The position numbers and the translations under genes were made by a program. A stretch of DNA of 64,000 nucleotides, from NCBI GenBank assembly GCA_013360865.1, contig JABWAS010000003.1, positions 681-64,680 of the forward strand, given 5' to 3'. This document shows positions 4,755 to 53,244 of the stretch, piece after piece. The stretch's first letter is position 1; each line of letters opens with the position of its first letter. The stretch is from Candidatus Paceibacter sp. GTDB taxonomy: Bacteria; Patescibacteriota; Minisyncoccia; UBA9983. The notes under the pieces are model-generated. The model was given only the letters and a program-made list of their open reading frames with translations, did not search any database and had not been told where the DNA came from.

Positions 4755-6209
4755 ATGACAGCTAAAAACCTAACATCCAGGCCGCCAGTAGTGGTGGTGA
4801 TGGGACATATTGACCACGGGAAATCAACCCTGCTTGATTACATCAGGAACGCCAATGTCACCGCCAAAGAGGCCGGCGGCATAACCCAGCACATCGGCGC
4901 TTATGAGGCTGAAGTTGAGAGCGGCGGAGAAAAAAGAAAAATAACTTTTCTGGACACTCCCGGGCACGAAGCTTTTTCTCAAATGAGAACGCGCGGAGCC
5001 AGAGTGGCCGACGTGGCCGTTTTGGTGGTAGCGGCGGACGACGGCGTCCAGCCGCAGACAATGGAGGCTTACGAAACTATAAAAAAATCCGGCCTGCCTT
5101 TCATCGTCGCCATCAATAAGATAGACAAACCCGGCGCCGAGCCGGAAAGAGTCAAAGCCCAGCTGGCCGAAAAAGAAATATTTTTGGAAGGCTACGGCGG
5201 CAACATCCCCTTCGCCAACATCTCCGCCAAAACCGGCCAGGGCGTGCCGGAACTTCTGGATTTGGTGCTGCTCCAGGCCGAGCTGGGAGATTTAAAAGCC
5301 GACCCCGAAGAGCCGGCCTCCGGCGTGATAATAGAATCAAAACTTGATCCAAAAAGAGGCATTTCTTCCACATTGCTTATAAGAAACGGCGCGATGAGAA
5401 AAGGGCAGTTCATCGTCGCCGGCCAGGTTTCCGCCCCTGTAAGAATTTTTGAGGACTTCAAAGGACGCCCGTTGCAGGAGGCGACTTTTTCCTCTCCCGT
5501 CAGAATCACCGGCTTCAGCGGACTGCCCGCCGTAGGCGACGAATTCAAAACTTTTGCCGGCAAAAAAGAAGCGGAGCAGTTTATGCTCCAGCTTAAAGAA
5601 AAAATAACCAAAAAATCTTTGCCGGAAAAATCCGCCGCGGCTCCGGAAATCAAAGACAAGGCGTATGTCCGGATGATAATCAAGACGGACACCGCCGGAT
5701 CACTGGAGGCGCTGGAGAAAGAACTGTTCAAACTCAAAGACGACGAGGTTGTCTTAACTATGCTCAAGGGCGGCGTTGGCAACATAAACGAAGATGACGC
5801 CAAATTCGCCTCAGCTTCCTCCGGCTCCGTGATTTTCGGTTTCAACACGGGAGTTGACGCCGCCGCCAAAGAAATAATCGAGCGTTACAAAACGCCGTTT
5901 TTCGTTTCGGACATAATTTACAAAATAAGCGACTGGCTCAAGGAGGAAATCGCCAGAAGAAAAGCGGAAATTCCAAGGGAGGAAATCATCGGCACGGCCA
6001 AAATACTAAAAACTTTCAGCCGTCAGAAAAACAAACAGGTCATCGGCGGAAAAGTTGTTTCCGGCAAAATGGTTGAGGGCAAAACCTTCAAAATCAAAAG
6101 GCGCGACGCCGAGATTGGCGAAGGACGAATTCGGCGCCATGACGGAAAACAAAATAGAAATCGTCCGCGACGACGAGATAGTGATTATAGGGAAATAAAA
6201 AGAGGCTGA
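4755..6209 (+). CDS. infB: Translation initiation factor IF-2, compact form lacking N-terminal domains; possible frameshift near the 3' end
   Basis: G1 GHIDHGKSTLLD, DTPGHEAF, NKID G4 motif, and the IF-2 domain II/C-terminal pattern. The last ~25 aa (RRHDGKQNRNRPRRRDSDYREIKRG) look out of frame; the +2 frame gives …EFGAMTENKIEIVRDDEIVIIGK, which is closer to the IF-2 C-terminus. Confidence 0.75.
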   Translation: MTAKNLTSRPPVVVVMGHIDHGKSTLLDYIRNANVTAKEAGGITQHIGAYEAEVESGGEKRKITFLDTPGHEAFSQMRTRGARVADVAVLVVAADDGVQPQTMEAYETIKKSGLPFIVAINKIDKPGAEPERVKAQLAEKEIFLEGYGGNIPFANISAKTGQGVPELLDLVLLQAELGDLKADPEEPASGVIIESKLDPKRGISSTLLIRNGAMRKGQFIVAGQVSAPVRIFEDFKGRPLQEATFSSPVRITGFSGLPAVGDEFKTFAGKKEAEQFMLQLKEKITKKSLPEKSAAAPEIKDKAYVRMIIKTDTAGSLEALEKELFKLKDDEVVLTMLKGGVGNINEDDAKFASASSGSVIFGFNTGVDAAAKEIIERYKTPFFVSDIIYKISDWLKEEIARRKAEIPREEIIGTAKILKTFSRQKNKQVIGGKVVSGKMVEGKTFKIKRRDAEIGEGRIRRHDGKQNRNRPRRRDSDYREIKRG

Positions 6210-6258: not shown

Positions 6259-6804
6259 TTATCCTATTTTTCTAAAAACGGACATCAAGATTTGATCCAA
6301 ATATCTGCCGTTTTTGAATATTTGCCTTTTTCTGCAGCCCTCCACCTTAAAGCCACATCCTTTATAACACTTTATTGCTCTTTTGTTATTGGAAAGAACA
6401 GTTAGACACACTTTGCGCAAATTAAGGGTATTAAAGGCAAAGCCAATAAGCAGTGACACAGCTTCCGTTCCGAAACCCTTGCCCCAATAGCTTTTTTCGC
6501 CGATAGATATGCCAAGAGTGACCGTTCTGTCTTTCCAATTTATTCCATGAAGACCGGCTGTTCCAATCAGAGTTCTCTCAATAGTTTCAACGCCCAACAC
6601 AATATCGCTAGACTTCCGCTTGGAAAGATTTTCAATCCAGCATATTTCTTCGTCTTCATGCATTGGTAAATAAGCCGAAAGATATTGCGTTACTTCCGGA
6701 TCATTTATCCACCGCATTAATTTTCCGACATCGCTTTTTAACAACGGACGAAGATTAACCTTTTCGCCAGGCAAAAATACAACTTTTTCTTCACTGCCAT
6801 CCAT
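6259..6804 (-). CDS. GNAT family N-acetyltransferase (RimJ/RimL-like)
   Basis: GNAT motifs …LGISIGEKSYWGKGFGTEAV… and …KCYKGCGFKVEG; AT-rich relative to neighbours. Confidence 0.65.
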   Translation of the reverse strand: MDGSEEKVVFLPGEKVNLRPLLKSDVGKLMRWINDPEVTQYLSAYLPMHEDEEICWIENLSKRKSSDIVLGVETIERTLIGTAGLHGINWKDRTVTLGISIGEKSYWGKGFGTEAVSLLIGFAFNTLNLRKVCLTVLSNNKRAIKCYKGCGFKVEGCRKRQIFKNGRYLDQILMSVFRKIG

Positions 6805-7277: not shown

Positions 7278-7329
7278 AATTTAATTCGCTGACTTTTTCG
7301 CCGAATTTAATTCGCTGACTTTTTCGCCG
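7278..7329. repeat. Perfect 26-bp tandem duplication (aatttaattcgctgactttttcgccg x2) at the 3' end of tyrS
   Basis: Copy 1 is 7278-7303 and copy 2 is 7304-7329, with identical sequence. Confidence 0.9.
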
Positions 7330-8477
7330 TTTAGTTCTATGGCGTTGTTTTGAATATCTTCGCGCGCCTGGCGTTTGGAATCAACCACTTTTGCCACCAC
7401 CAAGAAATCGGCGATGTTGAGGCCTCCGCCGGCCAGCGGAAATTTTTCCAGTTTTACCACCGATGAGTCGGTAAAAATTTGTTCCAAGTCGTCTTCGCTC
7501 AAATCTTTTATTTTGCCGCCGAAAAGTTTTTCGGAAATTTTCACGGCGACGGCGCAAGCCTTTTCGCTGTGGACAAAAACCGTTACCTCTTTAGCCAGCG
7601 TTTTCTGCGCTTCTCTTTTCTCCGGTTCTGTTTTTGTTTTTTCTTCCAGCGCTTTTATTTCTTCCAGACTTAAGAATGTATAATATTTTAAAAGTTTAAC
7701 AACATCGGCGTCTGTAGTGTTGAGCCAAAATTGATAAAAATGATAAGGCGAGGTCATTTTCGCGTCCAACCAGACGGCGTTGCCTTCCGATTTGCCGAAC
7801 TTTTTTCCGGAAGCGTCCGTCACTAACGGCCAAGTCAGACCTAAAACCTCCTTGCCTTTTGTCTTTCTCACCAGCTCAATTCCAGCCGTGATATTCCCCC
7901 ACTGGTCGGAACCGGCGATTTGGAATCCGCAGCCGTATTTTTCATCAAGCTGCATAAAGTCATATGCTTGGATGAGAGAGTAGCTGAACTCGGCAAAAGA
8001 AATACCATACTCCAACCGATTTTTTACCGCTTCTTTGGCAAGCATCTCGCTGATAGTAAACTTCTTGCCGATGTCGCGGATGAAATTAATGAAAGAATAA
8101 TCTTTAAACCAGTCGTAATTGTTTACGAATATTGCCTGCTTTTTAAAGTCAAAAAAACGGCCAAGCTGGTTTTTCACTGATTGGGCGTTTTGCTCAACTT
8201 CCTCCTCGCTTTTTAGTTCCCTTTCCGCCATTTTCCCACTTGGGTCGCCAACAAGCCCGGTCGCGCCGCCGACAAGAATAATCGGCTTCAACCCGGCTTG
8301 TTCCAGTCTTTTGGCTGTTATTGTCACCAGCAAATTTCCGACCTGCAAGCTCTCTCCGCTTGGGTCAAAACCACAGTAAAAATTGTTGCCTTTTTTTGCC
8401 AAATACTCTTTTACTTTTTCTTCGTTGGAAACCTGGTAAATAAGCCCTCTCTGTTTTAATTCCTCAAATATGTCCAT
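7281..8477 (-). CDS. tyrS: Tyrosyl-tRNA synthetase, C-terminally truncated by a 26-bp tandem duplication
   Basis: Class I TyrRS pattern GFDPSGESLQVGNLL (HIGH position reads QVGN), KFGKS (KMSKS), and a C-terminal S4 domain. See the finding on the duplication. Confidence 0.85.
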   Translation of the reverse strand: MDIFEELKQRGLIYQVSNEEKVKEYLAKKGNNFYCGFDPSGESLQVGNLLVTITAKRLEQAGLKPIILVGGATGLVGDPSGKMAERELKSEEEVEQNAQSVKNQLGRFFDFKKQAIFVNNYDWFKDYSFINFIRDIGKKFTISEMLAKEAVKNRLEYGISFAEFSYSLIQAYDFMQLDEKYGCGFQIAGSDQWGNITAGIELVRKTKGKEVLGLTWPLVTDASGKKFGKSEGNAVWLDAKMTSPYHFYQFWLNTTDADVVKLLKYYTFLSLEEIKALEEKTKTEPEKREAQKTLAKEVTVFVHSEKACAVAVKISEKLFGGKIKDLSEDDLEQIFTDSSVVKLEKFPLAGGGLNIADFLVVAKVVDSKRQAREDIQNNAIELNGEKVSELNSAKKSAN

Positions 8478-12501: not shown

Positions 12502-12539
12502 TGGTTTAATTTTACTCAAAGTTAACAAAAGAAACTAGC

Positions 12540-12622
12540 ATCGTTTGCGACGCCTTTCGCAGCGCGACGGCGCGAGAAGAGCAAATTTTCAGCAGAAAAT
12601 TATGCGAGCCGAGCAAATGATG
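12540..12622. repeat. 83-bp element with 9-bp terminal inverted repeats, copy 1 (identical to 42515-42597), inserted in the centre of the eno terminator palindrome
   Basis: Exact 83/83 identity with copy 2. The ends ATCGTTTGC…GCAAATGAT are inverted. The flanks gaaactagc/gctagtttc form a split palindrome. Confidence 0.85.
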
Positions 12623-14044
<1,422 letters not shown>

Positions 14045-16790: not shown

Positions 16791-16797
16791 AATACGG

Positions 16798-16844
16798 CAT
16801 CAAGGTTCCTACTTGATAGTTGCTATAAAGGAGGAACCTTGATG
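16798..16844. promoter_or_regulatory. Palindromic element CATCAAGGTTCCT…AGGAACCTTGATG, 10 nt upstream of the paralog-5 start
   Basis: 13-bp perfect inverted arms, related to the element at 17531-17577. Confidence 0.5.
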
Positions 16845-16866
16845 CAACCAGACATTCAGCCCAATC

Positions 16867-17510: not shown

Positions 17511-17530
17511 TTTTCTAATAATAATTCTGA

Positions 17531-17577
17531 CATCAAGGTTTCTCCTTGATAGCTGCTATCAAGGAGAAACCTTGATG
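17531..17577. promoter_or_regulatory. 47-bp perfect palindrome CATCAAGGTTTCTCCTTGATAGC t GCTATCAAGGAGAAACCTTGATG upstream of paralog 3
   Basis: 23-bp arms with a nested inner palindrome CCTTGATAGCTGCTATCAAGG. Confidence 0.55.
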
Positions 17578-17617
17578 TTCTATAATAATAAACCATTATT
17601 TCAAAAACAGCTACAGT

Positions 17618-23960: not shown

Positions 23961-24419
23961 TTAGCAAAATTTTAGAAAACGATATAGAGTTGACAAAGTA
24001 CCATAAATATTGTTATTCTGTGGAATTTTCACCCTTATAAATATCAATTTTAAAAAAAGGAGAGAACGCCGGATTAAGTTCTTTTTCTTGTAAAACTTGT
24101 ATATGGCGGTGGCGGAAACATCGGTATTGAATTTTCTTTTAATTAACATTCTCATTTTCTTCGGACCGTAATTCAATCTCAACTTTTGTTCACTGATAAA
24201 TATTTTCAATTCACCCTTGATTTTTGTCTCCGGACGTTCTTTCTTTGACGCGTATATTATTGAACCGCAATCAATGTTTTTCCATTTGTAATATGTTTTG
24301 CGAGAGATGAAATACAAACCGCACACTTCATCAACCGTTTTCCCCAATTTCTCGACCAAAAAATACCACTTTCTCCTGACTTTGGGCGCGTACGCCGCTG
24401 ACTGCTTTTTGTTGGCCAT
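23961..24419 (-). pseudogene. N-terminal HTH fragment of an IS481/IS3-type transposase-integrase (no DDE core present)
   Basis: …ISRKTYYKWKN… and …LRLNYGPKKMRMLIKRKFNTDVSATAIYKFYKKKNL… match the transposase N-terminal HTH plus integrase leader. The ORF then degenerates, and the region is AT-rich. Confidence 0.45.
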
Positions 24420-27894: not shown

Positions 27895-28440
27895 ATGGCG
27901 CTGATACAAAATATTGACCTCTGGGCGGCCGGTTACGCCGAATCAATACGGAGCGTTTTTTTGACTTCGTTTTTCAAGACTGTCACTTACTTAGGCGAGT
28001 GGTCTATTGTTCTGGCGGTAGCCATAATCGTCGCTTTAGTTTTGATTACCAAAGGGAAAAAGGTTTATGCCCTCACTCTGGCCTTGATAACATTTTTAAG
28101 TATCGGCTCCGTCTTTATTTTAAAATACGCTATTCAACGCCCACGGCCAATTGACGGCATTATTGACGAAACTTCATTTTCTTTCCCCAGTCTTCATGCC
28201 GTTCTTTCCGTAGCTTTTTATGGTCTGATAATTTATTTTTTGTGGGAAAGATTTAAAAGCCCGCGGTTCCGCTTTTTTAAAATATTATTCGGCCTTGTTT
28301 TGGTGTTGTTTATCGGCTTCAGCCGCGTTTATCTTGGCGTGCATTATTTGAGCGACGTGCTGGGCGGTTATCTTTTGGGGCTGTTCTGGCTGACGGCCGG
28401 AATTTACGCTTCTTTTAAAAGTGGCAAGGCGAGACCTTGA
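27895..28440 (+). CDS. PAP2-family phosphatase (undecaprenyl-diphosphatase-like)
   Basis: KYAIQRPRP, SFPSLHAV, SRVYLGVHYLSDV; the start is moved to the first ATG after the terminator. Confidence 0.7.
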   Translation: MALIQNIDLWAAGYAESIRSVFLTSFFKTVTYLGEWSIVLAVAIIVALVLITKGKKVYALTLALITFLSIGSVFILKYAIQRPRPIDGIIDETSFSFPSLHAVLSVAFYGLIIYFLWERFKSPRFRFFKILFGLVLVLFIGFSRVYLGVHYLSDVLGGYLLGLFWLTAGIYASFKSGKARP

Positions 28441-28471
28441 CATAAGTCATGTCAAGGTCTCGCCTTGCCAC
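28421..28471. repeat. 51-bp palindrome GTGGCAAGGCGAGACCTTGACAT aagtc ATGTCAAGGTCTCGCCTTGCCAC overlapping the PAP2 stop
   Basis: 23-bp perfect arms; it shares the GCGAGAC/GTCTCGC core with 44161-44204 and 51961-52007. Confidence 0.8.
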
Positions 28472-28492
28472 TTGCCAAAACCATAATCAACC

Positions 28493-30668: not shown

Positions 30669-30718
30669 AAAATCAAGGTTAAACCTTGAGATGCTTTTTA
30701 AGGTTTAACCTTGATTTT
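30669..30718 (+). terminator. Inverted repeat AAAATCAAGGTTAAACCT…AGGTTTAACCTTGATTTT plus T-run downstream of recG
   Basis: 18-bp arms, an A-run before and a T6 run after, so it may act in both directions. Confidence 0.55.
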
Positions 30719-34050: not shown

Positions 34051-34448
34051 ACTTAAAAGTTTTTTATAATCGACAACTCTGTTATCAATAATAGGACTTA
34101 CGCACTTTGGCAGAATTAAGCAAAATCCATGTGCTGAATAATGATTTTAAGCCATTAGTTGCTAAGTTTTTGCTAAAAAGTGCATTTTGCGTAAGTCCTA
34201 ATAATAATTACTTTTTGTCAGACGTCAAGATAATAAAAATTTACCTGTGAAAATGCAAATCTATTGACTATAAAAAAATAAACTATAAGCTAACGGTGGG
34301 GTTTGAGAAAGATTTGGAGCCAATCGGGCAACTCACCTTGCGGATAACAAAATGAGTCTAGTAACACTTCATTTATGGGGTTAAATTACCAGGGTTATAG
34401 AGAGGTCAAGTTAAAGATTGCTTGTGACTTATCTTCTGATCTACCCTA

Positions 34449-34536: not shown

Positions 34537-34886
34537 GGGGATGATCGGCCTGGACAAAGAGTACGTTTAAATCACGCAAGCCGAGTGTTCTAAAAACTCG
34601 TAAAACTTTCAGAAATCTAATTAAGCGTCAAAAACTTATTTAGCCAACCGGCGTTAGCTTACGCTTAACCCGGCGTTCCCCCGGCCCACTTCCGATAAGC
34701 CGGACGGAATGTCATTTATCGGGATAGGAAAATTTCCGCCTCAAAAATTTTCCGAAAAATTAGAGGCTCTGGATTCGGAGATTTTGATTGTTTAATACCC
34801 CGTTTCCGAAACGAACAAACAACCTAAGCTTGTAGAACTGATTTAAAACAGCTTTTTGCACGGCGGTTCGATTCCGCCCATCTCCA
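34537..34886 (+). ncRNA. ssrA: tmRNA (transfer-messenger RNA)
   Basis: The 5' end GGGGATGATCGGCCTGGAC pairs with the 3' CATCTCC-A. The T-arm is GGCGG-TTCGATT-CCGCC. It is ~350 nt and adjacent to smpB. A candidate tag frame ends …QPALAYA followed by TAA. Confidence 0.7.
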
Positions 34887-34996
34887 TAAATAAAATGCTC
34901 CAGCTTGCCTAGGGCCATTTTTATTTATGAGCACGATGAAACGGAATCGAACGGACTGACTAAATGTCAGTCCGCGGAATTTTCCATAAGAAAATT

Positions 34997-41815: not shown

Positions 41816-42493
41816 ATGGCGACTTACAAAACCAAGCTCATCAAAAAAGAGGAAGTGGCGGAGGGAACGATGTCTTTTTATTTTGAAAAGCCGGAGAAGT
41901 TCAAGTTTATCGCCGGGCAGTATCTGGAATTCAGCCATATCAAACCGGCGGAGACGGACAGCGAGGGCAACAACCGCTTTTTCTCCATCGCCAGCGCGCC
42001 GTATGAAAACAATATAATGATAGCCACCCGCATGAGAGACACGGCGTTTAAGCGGGTGCTCAAAAATCTGCCCATTGGTTCGGAAATAATAATAAACGGT
42101 CCGCACGGATTTTTTTACCTCCATAAAGACGCCTCCCGACCGGCCGTTTTCCTCATTGGCGGCATTGGCATCACGCCGGTTTCCAGTATTCTAAAAAACG
42201 CCGTCAAGGAAAGACTGCCCCATAAATTGTTTTTGTTTTACTCCAACAAGCGGCCGGAGGACACGGCTTTTCTTAGAGAATTACAAAATCTGGAAAAAGA
42301 AAATCCAGCCTTTAAACTTGTCGCCACCATGACAGATCTGGAAAAGTCGGCGCAAAAATGGCAGGGAGAAACCGGATTTATAAACGTGGAAATGATAAGA
42401 AAATATGTAGGCGATTTAAATTTGATGAAACTTCTGGAAGAAAACGGGGTTAAGAAAAAAGATATGGTGTCGGAAGAATTTGCGGGATACTAG
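41816..42493 (+). CDS. FNR-like FAD/NAD(P)-binding oxidoreductase
   Basis: RFFSIAS FAD-binding motif and the GGIGITP NAD-binding motif. Confidence 0.65.
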   Translation: MATYKTKLIKKEEVAEGTMSFYFEKPEKFKFIAGQYLEFSHIKPAETDSEGNNRFFSIASAPYENNIMIATRMRDTAFKRVLKNLPIGSEIIINGPHGFFYLHKDASRPAVFLIGGIGITPVSSILKNAVKERLPHKLFLFYSNKRPEDTAFLRELQNLEKENPAFKLVATMTDLEKSAQKWQGETGFINVEMIRKYVGDLNLMKLLEENGVKKKDMVSEEFAGY

Positions 42494-42514
42494 CTCATGT
42501 CGCGGGGAATTAAT

Positions 42515-42597
42515 ATCGTTTGCGACGCCTTTCGCAGCGCGACGGCGCGAGAAGAGCAAATTTTCAGCAGAAAATTATGCGAGCCGAGCAAATGATG
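42515..42597. repeat. 83-bp element with terminal inverted repeats, copy 2 (identical to 12540-12622), inserted in the centre of a terminator palindrome
   Basis: The flanks GTCGCGGGGAATTAA / TTAATTCCTCGCGAC form a split hairpin, followed by T6. Confidence 0.85.
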
Positions 42598-42669
42598 TTA
42601 ATTCCTCGCGACAAGTTTTTTGCGCTTTTGTTCGCTTTTACTTTTATTAAAACTTAGTATAATAAACAT

Positions 42670-44150: not shown

Positions 44151-44160
44151 ACTTGGAAGA

Positions 44161-44204
44161 AACTTGGAAGCGAGACTTCCGATTGGAAGTCTCGCTTCCA
44201 AGTT
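44161..44204. repeat. Palindrome AACTTGGAAGCGAGACTTCC gatt GGAAGTCTCGCTTCCAAGTT immediately after the nirK stop
   Basis: 20-bp arms with the GCGAGAC/GTCTCGC core. Confidence 0.75.
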
Positions 44205-44216
44205 TAAATCTCGTAA

Positions 44217-51558: not shown

Positions 51559-53244
51559 TTATTTAAAATTATTTAACTTTTTAGTAAGAGTATGAAAATC
51601 ATTTAAGCAGCTTTCCAGTTCCTTTTCCGCGCTTTCCGCTTTTTCCGTTTCCAGTTTTCTTATCCGTCGCGTTATCTCTTCCAGTTCGTTTTTTAATTTT
51701 TCTTTGGATAACTCTTTTTCCATTTTCTCCATCTCCTCCTTCAGCGTCTCGGAACCGTCAAAATAAATTTCCGCTTCCGTTATTATTTTATTTATATCAT
51801 TATCTTGCAATTTGTCAACGTAGTCTTTTATCCGTTCCAGAACTTGTCCGGCCGCGCTTTTTATTTCCGGATTTCGCGATTCTTTTTGCCACAGGGCCAG
51901 CCCGGCCAGCCGGTTGGAAAGAAATTCCAGGCGGGTTTTGGGCGCGAAGCTTTTTTGGCGCACTGTCAAGGTCTCGCCTTGACTGTCAAGGCGAGACCTT
52001 GACAGTGGTTCTAGTTTTACTTTCTTCAACTCCTGCCAGACCGGTTCTTCGGATATGCCGAATTTGTCGGCTATTTTTTTGACCACCTGCGCTTTCTCAA
52101 TCTCGCTGGGCAACCCGGCTATCAAAGGCAGGATTTTACCTTCCACCGATTTGCGGTCGCCCGCCGCCTCCAGCAGAAAGTCAAAAATATTCCGGGCGCT
52201 TTCCACCGCCGCCAGCCAGCTTTCCGGGTCTTCCAAAACGGCGTCCGCCGGATCTTTGCCGGAAGGGATGACGGCCGCCCTCACCTCCAAACCTTCCGCC
52301 AAGGCCATGGATATGCTTCTTTGCGCCGCGCTGATTCCGGCCCGGTCGCTGTCAAAAGCCATTATTATTTTGTCGGCCAGTCTTTTTATAAGGTTGAGGT
52401 GAAACGAAGTTAAAGCCGTTCCGGAAACAGCCACCGTGTTTGACACCCCGGCCTGACGCGACATTATCGCGTCCATCTGCCCTTCCACCAAAACGCAGGA
52501 GTTCGTTTTGCGGATTTCCCCTTTGGCTTTGTCAAAAGCGTAAAGAAGGCGGGACTTGTCGTACAAAACCGTCTGCGGCGTGTTGACGTATTTGCCTTCA
52601 TTGCCGGCCTGTTCGCCAAAAATTCTGCCGCTGAAGCCGACAACCTGGCCGGAAGAATTGGCCAGCGGAAACATTATCCGGCTCCGGAAGCGGTCGTAAT
52701 AACCCTTGGACGACTTTATGACCATTCCCGCTTTTTCCATTTCCGCGTCAGCATAGCCTTTTTTCTTCAAAAAATCATAGAGATTCCTCCAGCCTTCCGG
52801 AGCGAAGCCTATGCCGAAAGCTTTGGCCATTTCCCCTTTCACGCCTCGTTTTTTAAGGTAATCTATGACCGCGGAATTTTTCCTCAATTCGTTTTCGTAA
52901 AATATCGCGGCGCTTTGCGTCAGATGGAGCAGTTTCGTCCGTTCGTTTTTCTGCCCAATGTTTATTTTCTCCACCCGCACTCCGGCCCGGTCGGCCAAAA
53001 TTTTCAGCGCTTCCACGAAATCAATCCCTTCCATCTCCATCACGAAACTGAACATATCTCCGCCTTTGGAACAGCCGAAGCAATGCCAGCTTTCCCTGGC
53101 GGGAGAAACGAAAAACGAGGGCGTTTTTTCCGCGTGGAACGGGCAGCAGGCTTTGTAAGACGAGCCCGCTTTAGTGAGTTTGACGTAGCTCTGAACCACG
53201 TCAACTATGCCGAGGCGGGATTTAATTTGCTCAACGGTAGACAT
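51559..53244 (-). CDS. dnaG: DNA primase
   Basis: Zinc ribbon [15 protein letters not shown]…[11 protein letters not shown] and a TOPRIM domain; it contains an in-frame palindromic insert at 51961-52007. Confidence 0.9.
51961..52007. repeat. 47-bp palindrome CACTGTCAAGGTCTCGCCTTGAC t GTCAAGGCGAGACCTTGACAGTG in-frame inside dnaG (encodes [16 protein letters not shown])
   Basis: 23-bp perfect arms; the same core as the palindrome at 28421-28471. Confidence 0.8.

Follow-up and report, generated by a model that had tools for sequence, protein, structure and literature searches.

A structured repeat unit at the tips of gene-end hairpins in Parcubacteria/Paceibacteria-type CPR bacteria

Known hairpin repeats and the two copies in the window

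Correia/NEMIS, ERIC, RUP and the Rickettsia palindromic elements are multi-copy, non-coding and geneless sequences of ~80–150 bp that form long hairpins at gene boundaries, and those of Rickettsia sometimes run into coding ends. The hairpin-tip family described here, two copies of which lie in the window (the whole 64,000-nucleotide stretch of DNA that we analysed), is likewise small, non-coding, multi-copy, geneless, foldable into a long hairpin and situated at gene boundaries, where it sometimes runs into coding ends. It differs from such bacterial MITEs and structured repeats in that it has no direct target-site duplication, that the apical three-way junction and not the termini is conserved, that the basal stem is locus-specific, and that the interior shows RNA-like covariation over a class-level clade.

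REP/REPIN sequences, which are mobilised in trans by a single-copy gene (RAYT, an IS200-like Y1) with strand-specific activity on folded single strands, share with the family gene-end hairpin repeats, tens of copies or more per genome and a compensatory evolution of the stem. Conservation is distributed the other way round, however: in a REPIN it lies in the arms (REP), with a free loop, and in the hairpin-tip family in the loop domain, with free arms. We found no RAYT in the sequences examined. IS1397/ISKpn1, IS110/IS1111-type elements and group IIC introns are also aimed at hairpin or palindromic DNA at gene ends, but they are kilobase-sized, carry their own enzyme or ribozyme and either produce a 3–4-bp target-site duplication or insert after the stem; the unit studied here is 82 nt long, has no coding capacity and occupies the exact symmetry centre. 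The intervening sequences of rRNA (helix-25/45 IVS) come close in another respect, as there too an extra stem-loop replaces a helix tip, with a long duplex suited to RNase III and a sporadic occurrence, but they are found only in rRNA helices and as sense RNA, whereas the hairpin-tip family lies between protein or tRNA genes in either orientation. Intrinsic (Rho-independent) terminators share the position of the hairpin directly after a stop codon, as well as the U/A tracts seen at the window copies and in about one third of the family. The stems of the hairpin-tip family, in contrast, are 20–47 bp long, carry a 60-nt structured cap, lack a U-tract in two thirds of cases and mostly run antisense to the gene upstream. 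Interspersed repeats that are small and structured are known as a kind, but we know of none in which the apex is conserved, the ends are free, and both a target-site duplication and a linked enzyme are missing.

The initial annotation had described an 83-bp element in two identical copies. The comparison bore this out, as the copies (Table 1) are 100% identical over 83 nt, with 0 nt of identity beyond either end. We found no third copy in the window: the 44-nt core, allowed ≤3 mismatches, matched only these two sites (0 matches expected by chance), the covariance model R2, run over the 64 kb with filters off, returned only the same two, and model R1 with default filters gave no extras. The outer-arm sequences were not found elsewhere in the window either. 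That the repeated unit is discrete is further supported by a second genome, which has an identical segment with the same 82-nt boundaries as the window, recurring at two of its sites.

Table 1. Position and properties of the two copies, their structural parts and their outer arms
Feature	Position	Strand	Remarks
Copy 1 of the 83-nt unit	12540..12622	+	three-way-junction head and 9-bp inner stem; 71 bits against R2
Copy 2 of the 83-nt unit	42515..42597	+	identical to copy 1; 72.5 bits against R2
Copy 1 left outer arm, AGAAACTAGC	12530..12539	+	pairs with 12623–12631; inverted repeat I17 and fold
Copy 1 right outer arm, CTAGTTTCT	12623..12631	+	minus strand is the last two eno codons and the TAG stop
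Copy 2 left outer arm, TGTCGCGGGGAATTAAT	42498..42514	+	inverted repeat I5 and fold
Copy 2 right outer arm, TTAATTCCTCGCGACA	42598..42613	+	followed by AG, then T6 at 42616–42621; inverted-repeat search
P3, AU-rich hairpin GCAAATTTTC-AGCA-GAAAATT(A)TGC with bulged A	12581..12605 (copy 2: 42556–42580)	+	family signature
P2a, GC hairpin GCGC-GACG-GCGC	12562..12573 (copy 2: 42537–42548)	+	95% paired, 3–4 pair types per position in 60 sequences
P2 helix	12555..12579 (12555–12558 with 12576–12579)	+	encloses the 3×2 internal loop GCA/GA and P2a
Tandem G·A internal loop (G10 A11 against G72 A73 at 12611–12612) and short helix G13–C70, C14–G69	12549..12553	+	

In both copies the flanks prolong the terminal stem. 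The inverted-repeat search paired 12530–12548 with 12613–12631 (19 nt, 95%) and 42498–42523 with 42588–42613 (26 nt, 88%), in agreement with the inverted repeats first reported around each copy. The complete hairpins fold at −46 kcal/mol (copy 1) and −54.8 kcal/mol (copy 2), with z-scores of −6.3 against shuffled sequence. The 9-bp terminal inverted repeat had been described correctly, including its single G–T position. Of the two internal hairpins proposed at the same time, AATTTTC-AGCA-GAAAATT stood and turned out to be the most conserved part of the family. The other, TTTGC…GCAAA, is unsupported because GCAAA (positions 42–46 of the unit) belongs to the AU hairpin; the second real one is the GC hairpin P2a.

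Copy 1 lies between eno (12623–14026) and gpmI, both on the minus strand, and the eno stop codon (12623–12625) falls within its right arm and abuts the 83-nt unit. Copy 2 has plus-strand neighbours on both sides, an FNR-like gene and ybaB. Since both copies are on the + strand and the flanking genes are on opposite strands, the element has opposite orientations to local transcription at the two sites. The T-run said to follow each palindrome is a clean T6 at copy 2, but at copy 1 the U-rich tract (TTTTGTT) is on the minus strand, which is the eno sense strand.

Distribution, fold and neighbourhood of the family

A pattern made from the two termini of the unit was scanned against viral contigs, GTDB species representatives and metagenome contigs. 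It had no match in the first two sets and matched 11 metagenome contigs, mostly from groundwater, in which the 82-nt unit occurs without indels at eight independent genomic sites. At all eight, inverted (not direct) repeats reach right up to the unit, and the proposed insertion at a hairpin centre holds in the sense that the unit occupies the exact centre of its inverted-repeat flanks at 8/8 independent sites of the subfamily. The copies differ in a compensatory manner: pair 14–69 changes from C–G to U–A, and pair 30–50 (in A1) is G–C, U–A or A–U.

The second pattern, the invariant AU hairpin (P3), yielded at least 120 stretches when scanned in GTDB genomes. Among the matches listed, P3 was exact in at least 116 loci of Patescibacteria MAGs, labelled Paceibacteria, Nomura-, Kaiser-, Lipton-, Wildermuth-, Adler-, Zambryskii-bacteria and similar. 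The search for further copies that the initial annotation had recommended led well beyond the window, and the 83-bp repeat is no MITE private to one lineage. Two scans of viral contigs turned up no viral or plasmid copies. We also noted, in the Clostridia MAG CALXUX01 (L060, L072, L099) and hence outside CPR, three copies of an unrelated long-hairpin repeat with a P3-like GCAAATTTTC-GCCCKA-GAAAATTATGC; it has ~30-nt inverted-repeat flanks and no GC hairpin.

All members have a three-way-junction head of ~60 nt on a long stem (P1), the sequence of which is specific to the locus or lineage and which has a median of ~23 and a maximum of 47 matched bp. In 60 class-1 members, P2 is a 3–4-bp helix with a 3×2 internal loop, GCA opposite GA (84% paired), and P2a is a 4-bp GC helix with the loop GACG, GGCG or GUCG (95% paired, three or four pair types everywhere). 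P3 is a stem of 10 bp that contains a single bulged A and is capped by an AGCA loop. Lineages other than that of the window have unrelated sequence in place of its 'terminal inverted repeat' and keep the interior. In a second architecture, class 2, an additional helix surrounds P3 of the same head; copies of this class occur in tRNA arrays, on the tRNA strand.

Support for this fold comes from alignment A3, which contains 60 diverse class-1 members and in which P3 is invariant by construction. Its P2a pair types are CG in 27 sequences, GC in 27, AU in 2 and UA in 1, with similar spreads at other positions, and pair 22–44 of P2 is GC in 30, UA in 16, AU in 5 and CG in 3. The covariation score was 0.266 compared with 0.121 in shuffles (reached by 0/500) and lay above every slid-register control. 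The P3 stem, for its part, covaries in variant copies found later by the covariance model. Judging from these substitutions, the fold is kept by compensatory change, and the small structured RNA module that had initially been offered as an alternative is the description that fits best, given the strong covariation of the internal fold across diverse members.

In Rfam 15, copy 1 had no relevant match at E up to 10, and class-1 and class-2 examples had none at E up to 1; a scan of the window at gathering thresholds returned only the tmRNA and tRNAs. Patterns for the hammerhead, the K-turn and group II domain 5 were inspected by eye and none of them fit. No description of the hairpin-tip family was found in the searchable literature, the P3 sequence included. 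Apparently undescribed so far, this is a real and widespread family of structured repeats in Parcubacteria/Paceibacteria-type CPR bacteria, and its covariation support exceeds that of many curated RNA motifs.

To compare the two arms, we aligned the left one to the reverse complement of the right one with a scoring that treats all mismatches alike. On the + strand, the arm mismatches were G·T in 119 cases and A·C in 41 (~3:1, p = 5e-10), and the excess of G·T holds in every orientation of the neighbouring genes. The ratio of G·T to A·C is 40:6 and 49:12 in the first ~20 bp of the stem and 21:17 beyond, and G·A/A·G mismatches (tandem sheared pairs) cluster family-wide in its first 10 bp. As the wobble bias is confined to the vicinity of the head, the selected object is the + strand folded on itself, comprising the head and about two helical turns. 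The + strand as written is the one that folds and is under selection, and the wobble and G·A signatures point to RNA as the selected molecule, folded ssDNA being the less likely candidate.

The covariance model detected 16 additional copies in 730 kb of fetched loci, which, with the two in the 64 kb of the window, leads to an estimate of ~20–30 copies per Mb. CPR/Patescibacteria genomes are tiny and tightly packed, and carriers are estimated to hold tens of copies of this one folded element. Outside the invariant hairpin, 9 of 19 within-genome pairs are at least 85% identical, while identity between genomes has a median of 59% and a 95th percentile of 72%. The family consists of a discrete ~82-nt unit, the copies of which are near-identical at different sites of one genome but diverge from one genome to another. 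Same-species short-read (Logan) contigs all stop ~30 nt into the element, as expected of a repeat. One 1304-nt contig (L006) is a chimera in which the left flank of an ftsE/ftsX site and a right flank like that of L003 are joined through an identical element; the contig may have been misassembled at the repeat, or two copies may really have recombined.

Between co-directional genes, 24 class-1 copies are antisense (−,−) and 10 are sense (+,+), i.e., 70% are antisense (p = 0.024). With this orientation, and with unrelated housekeeping genes as neighbours, a cis-regulatory RNA (riboswitch, leader or 3′-UTR) was rejected. At one orthologous junction (SLT gene, element, prfB) the orientation is flipped between L046/L059 and L117. 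A rule based on the replication strand was discarded as well, since same-contig pairs share orientation in 8 cases and oppose it in 7. Back-to-back pairs of opposite orientation, with cores ~20–70 nt apart, were seen at L015 (887–1069), L076 (179–369), L116 (2577–2800) and L091 (1409–1611), three of them divergent and one convergent. Some junctions are occupied in divergent genomes, namely the ftsZ 3′ end in L010, L011 and L036 and also the region upstream of prfB.

An all-against-all clustering of 607 neighbouring ORFs revealed no recurrent linked gene, only housekeeping families; the neighbours include RF-2, TrxB, LepA, FtsZ, NusG, FtsEX, DprA, the CCA enzyme, YidC and similar proteins. The reported lack of a linked transposase extends from the window to the other loci. 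Among the ORFs in the 64 kb of the window, nothing beyond a weak HTH protein (23961–24419) was noted; transposases, integrases, reverse transcriptases and Y1 (TnpA/RAYT) genes are all absent there, and neither a transposase nor a reverse transcriptase was found near the copies across ~120 loci. No IS with the element's ends was present in the window or the loci, and a Xer-like recombinase lies near only 4 of the loci. No protein gene travels with the unit.

Flanking arms and candidate explanations

Comparison with relatives bears on the gain of the window copies. In four relatives with 79–83% identical enolase, eno and gpmI overlap by 11–31 nt or are 2 nt apart, whereas the window junction has ~150 extra nt and a different enolase C-terminus. 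In relatives of the FNR-like gene, the next gene starts 12 nt after the stop. The orthologous eno–gpmI and FNR junctions of the relatives have no hairpin. Present here and absent there, the element has been gained in the window lineage, and as an insertion it has separated tightly coupled genes. Intact empty palindromes had been expected at orthologous sites; their absence, together with the overlap of eno and gpmI, speaks against a pre-existing hairpin, but this is suggestive and not decisive, because relatives with ~80% amino-acid identity are too distant to serve as true empty sites. At the distance of the nearest element-free relatives (~80% identical enolase), the exact pre-insertion sequence is not readable. 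Among same-species contigs no empty site was found: all carry the element or break in it. Taken together, the orthologous junctions indicate that the unit can be present or absent at a given site, in both orientations, and that it can split formerly overlapping genes and rewrite gene ends.

The FNR-like oxidoreductase next to copy 2 (41816–42493, plus strand, 225 aa) itself lacks 15 residues, PVYYMSGPPQMVAAM, found in all 240-aa homologues and kept in same-species Logan contigs (P0121); the shorter form in the window may stem from the assembly or from the in-frame loss of a conserved motif.

The flanking arms could have originated in two ways. The unit may enter the symmetry centre of pre-existing palindromes, often terminators, in which case the empty sites would have been the perfect palindromes AGAAACTAG|CTAGTTTCT (eno–gpmI) and GGAATTAA|TTAATTCC (FNR-like–ybaB). 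Tracts of terminator polarity accompany 30/93 host hairpins (reverse polarity, 11/93); A/U tracts of this polarity occur at both window copies (at copy 1 loosely and on the minus strand) and at L010 and L011. Many perfect palindromes without a core are found at gene ends in this genome, and relatives have ordinary terminators ~10 nt after trxB. The tracts in about one third of hairpins and the trxB terminators of relatives favour pre-existing hairpins. As a general rule, however, the 'terminator hairpin' of the initial annotation is not supported, since only that third has a U-tract of terminator polarity.

Alternatively, fold-back or template-switch copying may have created the arms, or preserved their perfect match, once the unit had been inserted. 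At both L010 and L011, the left arm is the native trxB end, and relatives terminate at the same residue; the left arms of the two loci differ at four positions, and 4/4 differences recur, mirrored, in the right arms. The presence of native coding ends within arms, together with these mirrored changes, favours manufacture or correction after insertion. Two further points were counted for this view: the missing hairpin at the orthologous eno–gpmI and FNR junctions, and the 13–40-nt direct repeats of the adjacent gene's 3′ or 5′ end that flank class-2 copies and adjoin many tRNAs (Leu, Arg, Trp, Ile, Lys, Val) as well as protein genes. Quasi-palindrome correction through intra-strand template switching is an established mutational process, and it would explain why arms are perfect beyond the ~20 bp that show selection. 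Pre-existing terminator palindromes and a self-built stem are both plausible sources of the arms.

Three class-2 loci illustrate the direct repeats. At L124 (P3 at 5301–5325, minus strand), the element lies between two directly repeated 40-nt copies of a pilB/gspE-like CDS 3′ end, which differ at three positions, all synonymous, TAA versus TAG included. At L104 and L129, the 5′ part of the downstream tRNA (Leu and Glu, respectively) is duplicated, with a truncated fragment upstream and the intact tRNA downstream of the element. An integrase-type islet (attL/attR) was considered and rejected: the direct repeats lie beside many different tRNAs, CDS ends and tRNA 5′ ends, and the Xer-like recombinase is near 4 loci only.

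On balance, we lean towards regarding the family as a non-autonomous, structure-dependent, non-coding mobile element of CPR bacteria. Its anatomy, as read from the aligned loci, comprises a ~60-nt head on a helical neck, of which ~20 bp are under selection, and below it locus-specific inverted repeats at a gene boundary. A trans-acting activity would recognise this structure and copy the unit from a folded single strand (RNA or ssDNA) to new sites, where it would occupy the symmetry centre of a palindrome or other hairpin-forming DNA next to a gene end. Template switching within the hairpin would then keep the surrounding palindrome perfect or extend it. After insertion, the element might be mostly a tolerated selfish passenger; on + strand transcripts it would confer a highly stable helix with a cap, a possible reason for the shortage of sense copies. 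If the element is mobile, it represents a repeat class with an unusual logic, one that also explains where short-read assemblies break.

Several observations fit this mobile-element reading less well. No transposition intermediate, enzyme or true empty site in a close strain was seen, and gene conversion could give within-genome identity without new insertions. The identity of P3 throughout a clade of class rank and the recurrence of the element at particular junctions of divergent genomes suit a host-useful RNA kept in place equally well or better, and the evidence on the origin of the arms points both ways, as described above. A more specific version is, in our opinion, rather doubtful: a conserved host factor, or one that is unlinked, would read the head as a folded single strand and set it at the symmetry centre of hairpin DNA, and the element would then build or extend its own stem from the neighbouring gene end by fold-back or template-switch copying, so that duplications would be inverted in class 1 and direct in class 2. 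Such a 'hairpin-tip' element, protein-less, self-templating and restricted to CPR bacteria, would be a novel type of mobile, structured nucleic acid.

The strongest alternative, which we consider unlikely but which carries real weight, is a multi-copy RNA module that functions for the host and is kept uniform within a genome by gene conversion, its head being a cap that binds protein on long hairpins at 3′ ends or between genes (such as a signal for RNase III or processing, a stabiliser of mRNA 3′ ends or an insulator of transcription). The head is indeed highly conserved and covarying, the stem carries, over its first 20 bp or about two helical turns, the G·U and tandem G·A signatures typical of RNA, and class-2 copies, lying on the tRNA strand in tRNA arrays, are very probably transcribed. 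The junctions shared by divergent genomes and the terminator-polarity tracts of about one third of host hairpins are also in keeping with such a role. A cis-acting RNA should be sense, yet 70% of class-1 copies between co-directional genes are antisense, one orthologous junction shows the flip of orientation, and the adjacent inverted pairs are too close for promoters of their own. The splitting of overlapping genes and the altered enolase C-terminus look like damage and not design, and the same sharp 82-nt boundaries in two genomes fit a copied unit better than conversion tracts. If the RNA is functional, it would belong to an unknown RNA–protein system conserved across a class of uncultivated bacteria. 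The covariance model and the set of loci are ready for metatranscriptomic and population-genomic tests.

The initial annotation had likened the unit to IS200/IS605-type elements or MITEs. According to this explanation, a MITE or IS200/IS605-type derivative is cut and pasted by a transposase into the loops of pre-existing intrinsic terminators. Like a MITE, the unit is small (82–83 nt), non-coding, multi-copy (20–30 per Mb) and absent from relatives' junctions, and it is discrete, has 9-bp terminal inverted repeats and is central in palindromes at 8/8 sites. The U/A tracts of terminator polarity at both window copies and at L010/L011, the many core-less palindromes at gene ends of this genome and the relatives' terminators just after trxB would suit insertion into terminators. 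However, the 9-bp ATCGTTTGC/GCAAATGAT pair is found only in the window's subfamily, and the loss of the terminal repeat in other lineages with a conserved interior is the opposite of what is seen in MITEs. The flanks are inverted (CAAT/ATTG at L003, ATAAT/GTTAT at L005), which means that there is no target-site duplication; models with a 2-bp TA or a 4-bp YTAR duplication fit some sites by palindromy and fail at these two. IS200/IS605 requires a constant 4–5-nt target beside one end (compare also PATE and REPIN), but the left flanks end in TAAT, CAAT, TAAC or TAGC and are symmetric, and no Y1 gene is present in the window. Given also that none of the ~120 copies has a transposase nearby, that two thirds of host hairpins are without terminator tracts and that the relatives' orthologous junctions have no hairpin, we find this explanation improbable, and membership in either of these element types was not upheld. 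Integron attC sites (RYYYAAC/GTTRRRY boxes) were rejected too: the centre is conserved and the outer stem variable, and AAC/GTT-like flanks occur only in the window's subfamily.

Least probable of all is an RNA-mediated, SINE-like or guide-directed element, in which the + strand RNA would be mobile, arms complementary to the adjacent gene end would guide or prime the process, and the flanking gene ends would be copied on insertion as inverted or direct duplications. The wobble bias of RNA type specific to one strand, the variable length of the gene-end duplications (13–40 nt, unlike the fixed target-site duplications of transposases), the left arms complementary to the upstream tRNA or CDS 3′ end, and the duplicated CDS end of L124 that departs from the original only at synonymous sites speak for it, but no reverse transcriptase lies near any copy, viral or plasmid copies were not found, the duplicated tRNA ends match the gene rather than a mature tRNA with its CCA tail (L106), and group II introns were absent from the 95 complete Patescibacteria genomes of one survey (PMC13011429).

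Other features of the window

The window contains a second repeat family, TCAAGG-N5-CCTTGA, which is REPIN-like and forms inverted doublets and 19–25-bp perfect palindromes at gene ends. It was found at 16797–16845, 17530–17578, 28419–28473, 30669–30718 and 51961–52007, and also at 44160–44205; in total, there are 10 such hairpins against 0.14 expected by chance. The same palindrome, ATGTCAAGGTCTCGCCTTGACAT, is inserted in the 3′ end of eno in one relative (L147), where it is translated in the enolase tail.

At 34081–34211, ~330 nt upstream of the tmRNA gene (34537–34889), a 24-nt inverted repeat (83% complementary) surrounds 83 nt of unrelated sequence, which is not a member of the hairpin-tip family. 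Positions 7278–7329, between an ORF at 6259–6804 and the start of a minus-strand ORF at 7281–8477, are a perfect tandem duplication of the 26-nt unit AATTTAATTCGCTGACTTTTTCGCCG. Finally, the segment 56968–60103 (minus strand), rpoB-like by its N-terminal sequence, is split into two overlapping ORFs of 583 and 474 aa, which may reflect a frameshift, a split gene or an assembly error.
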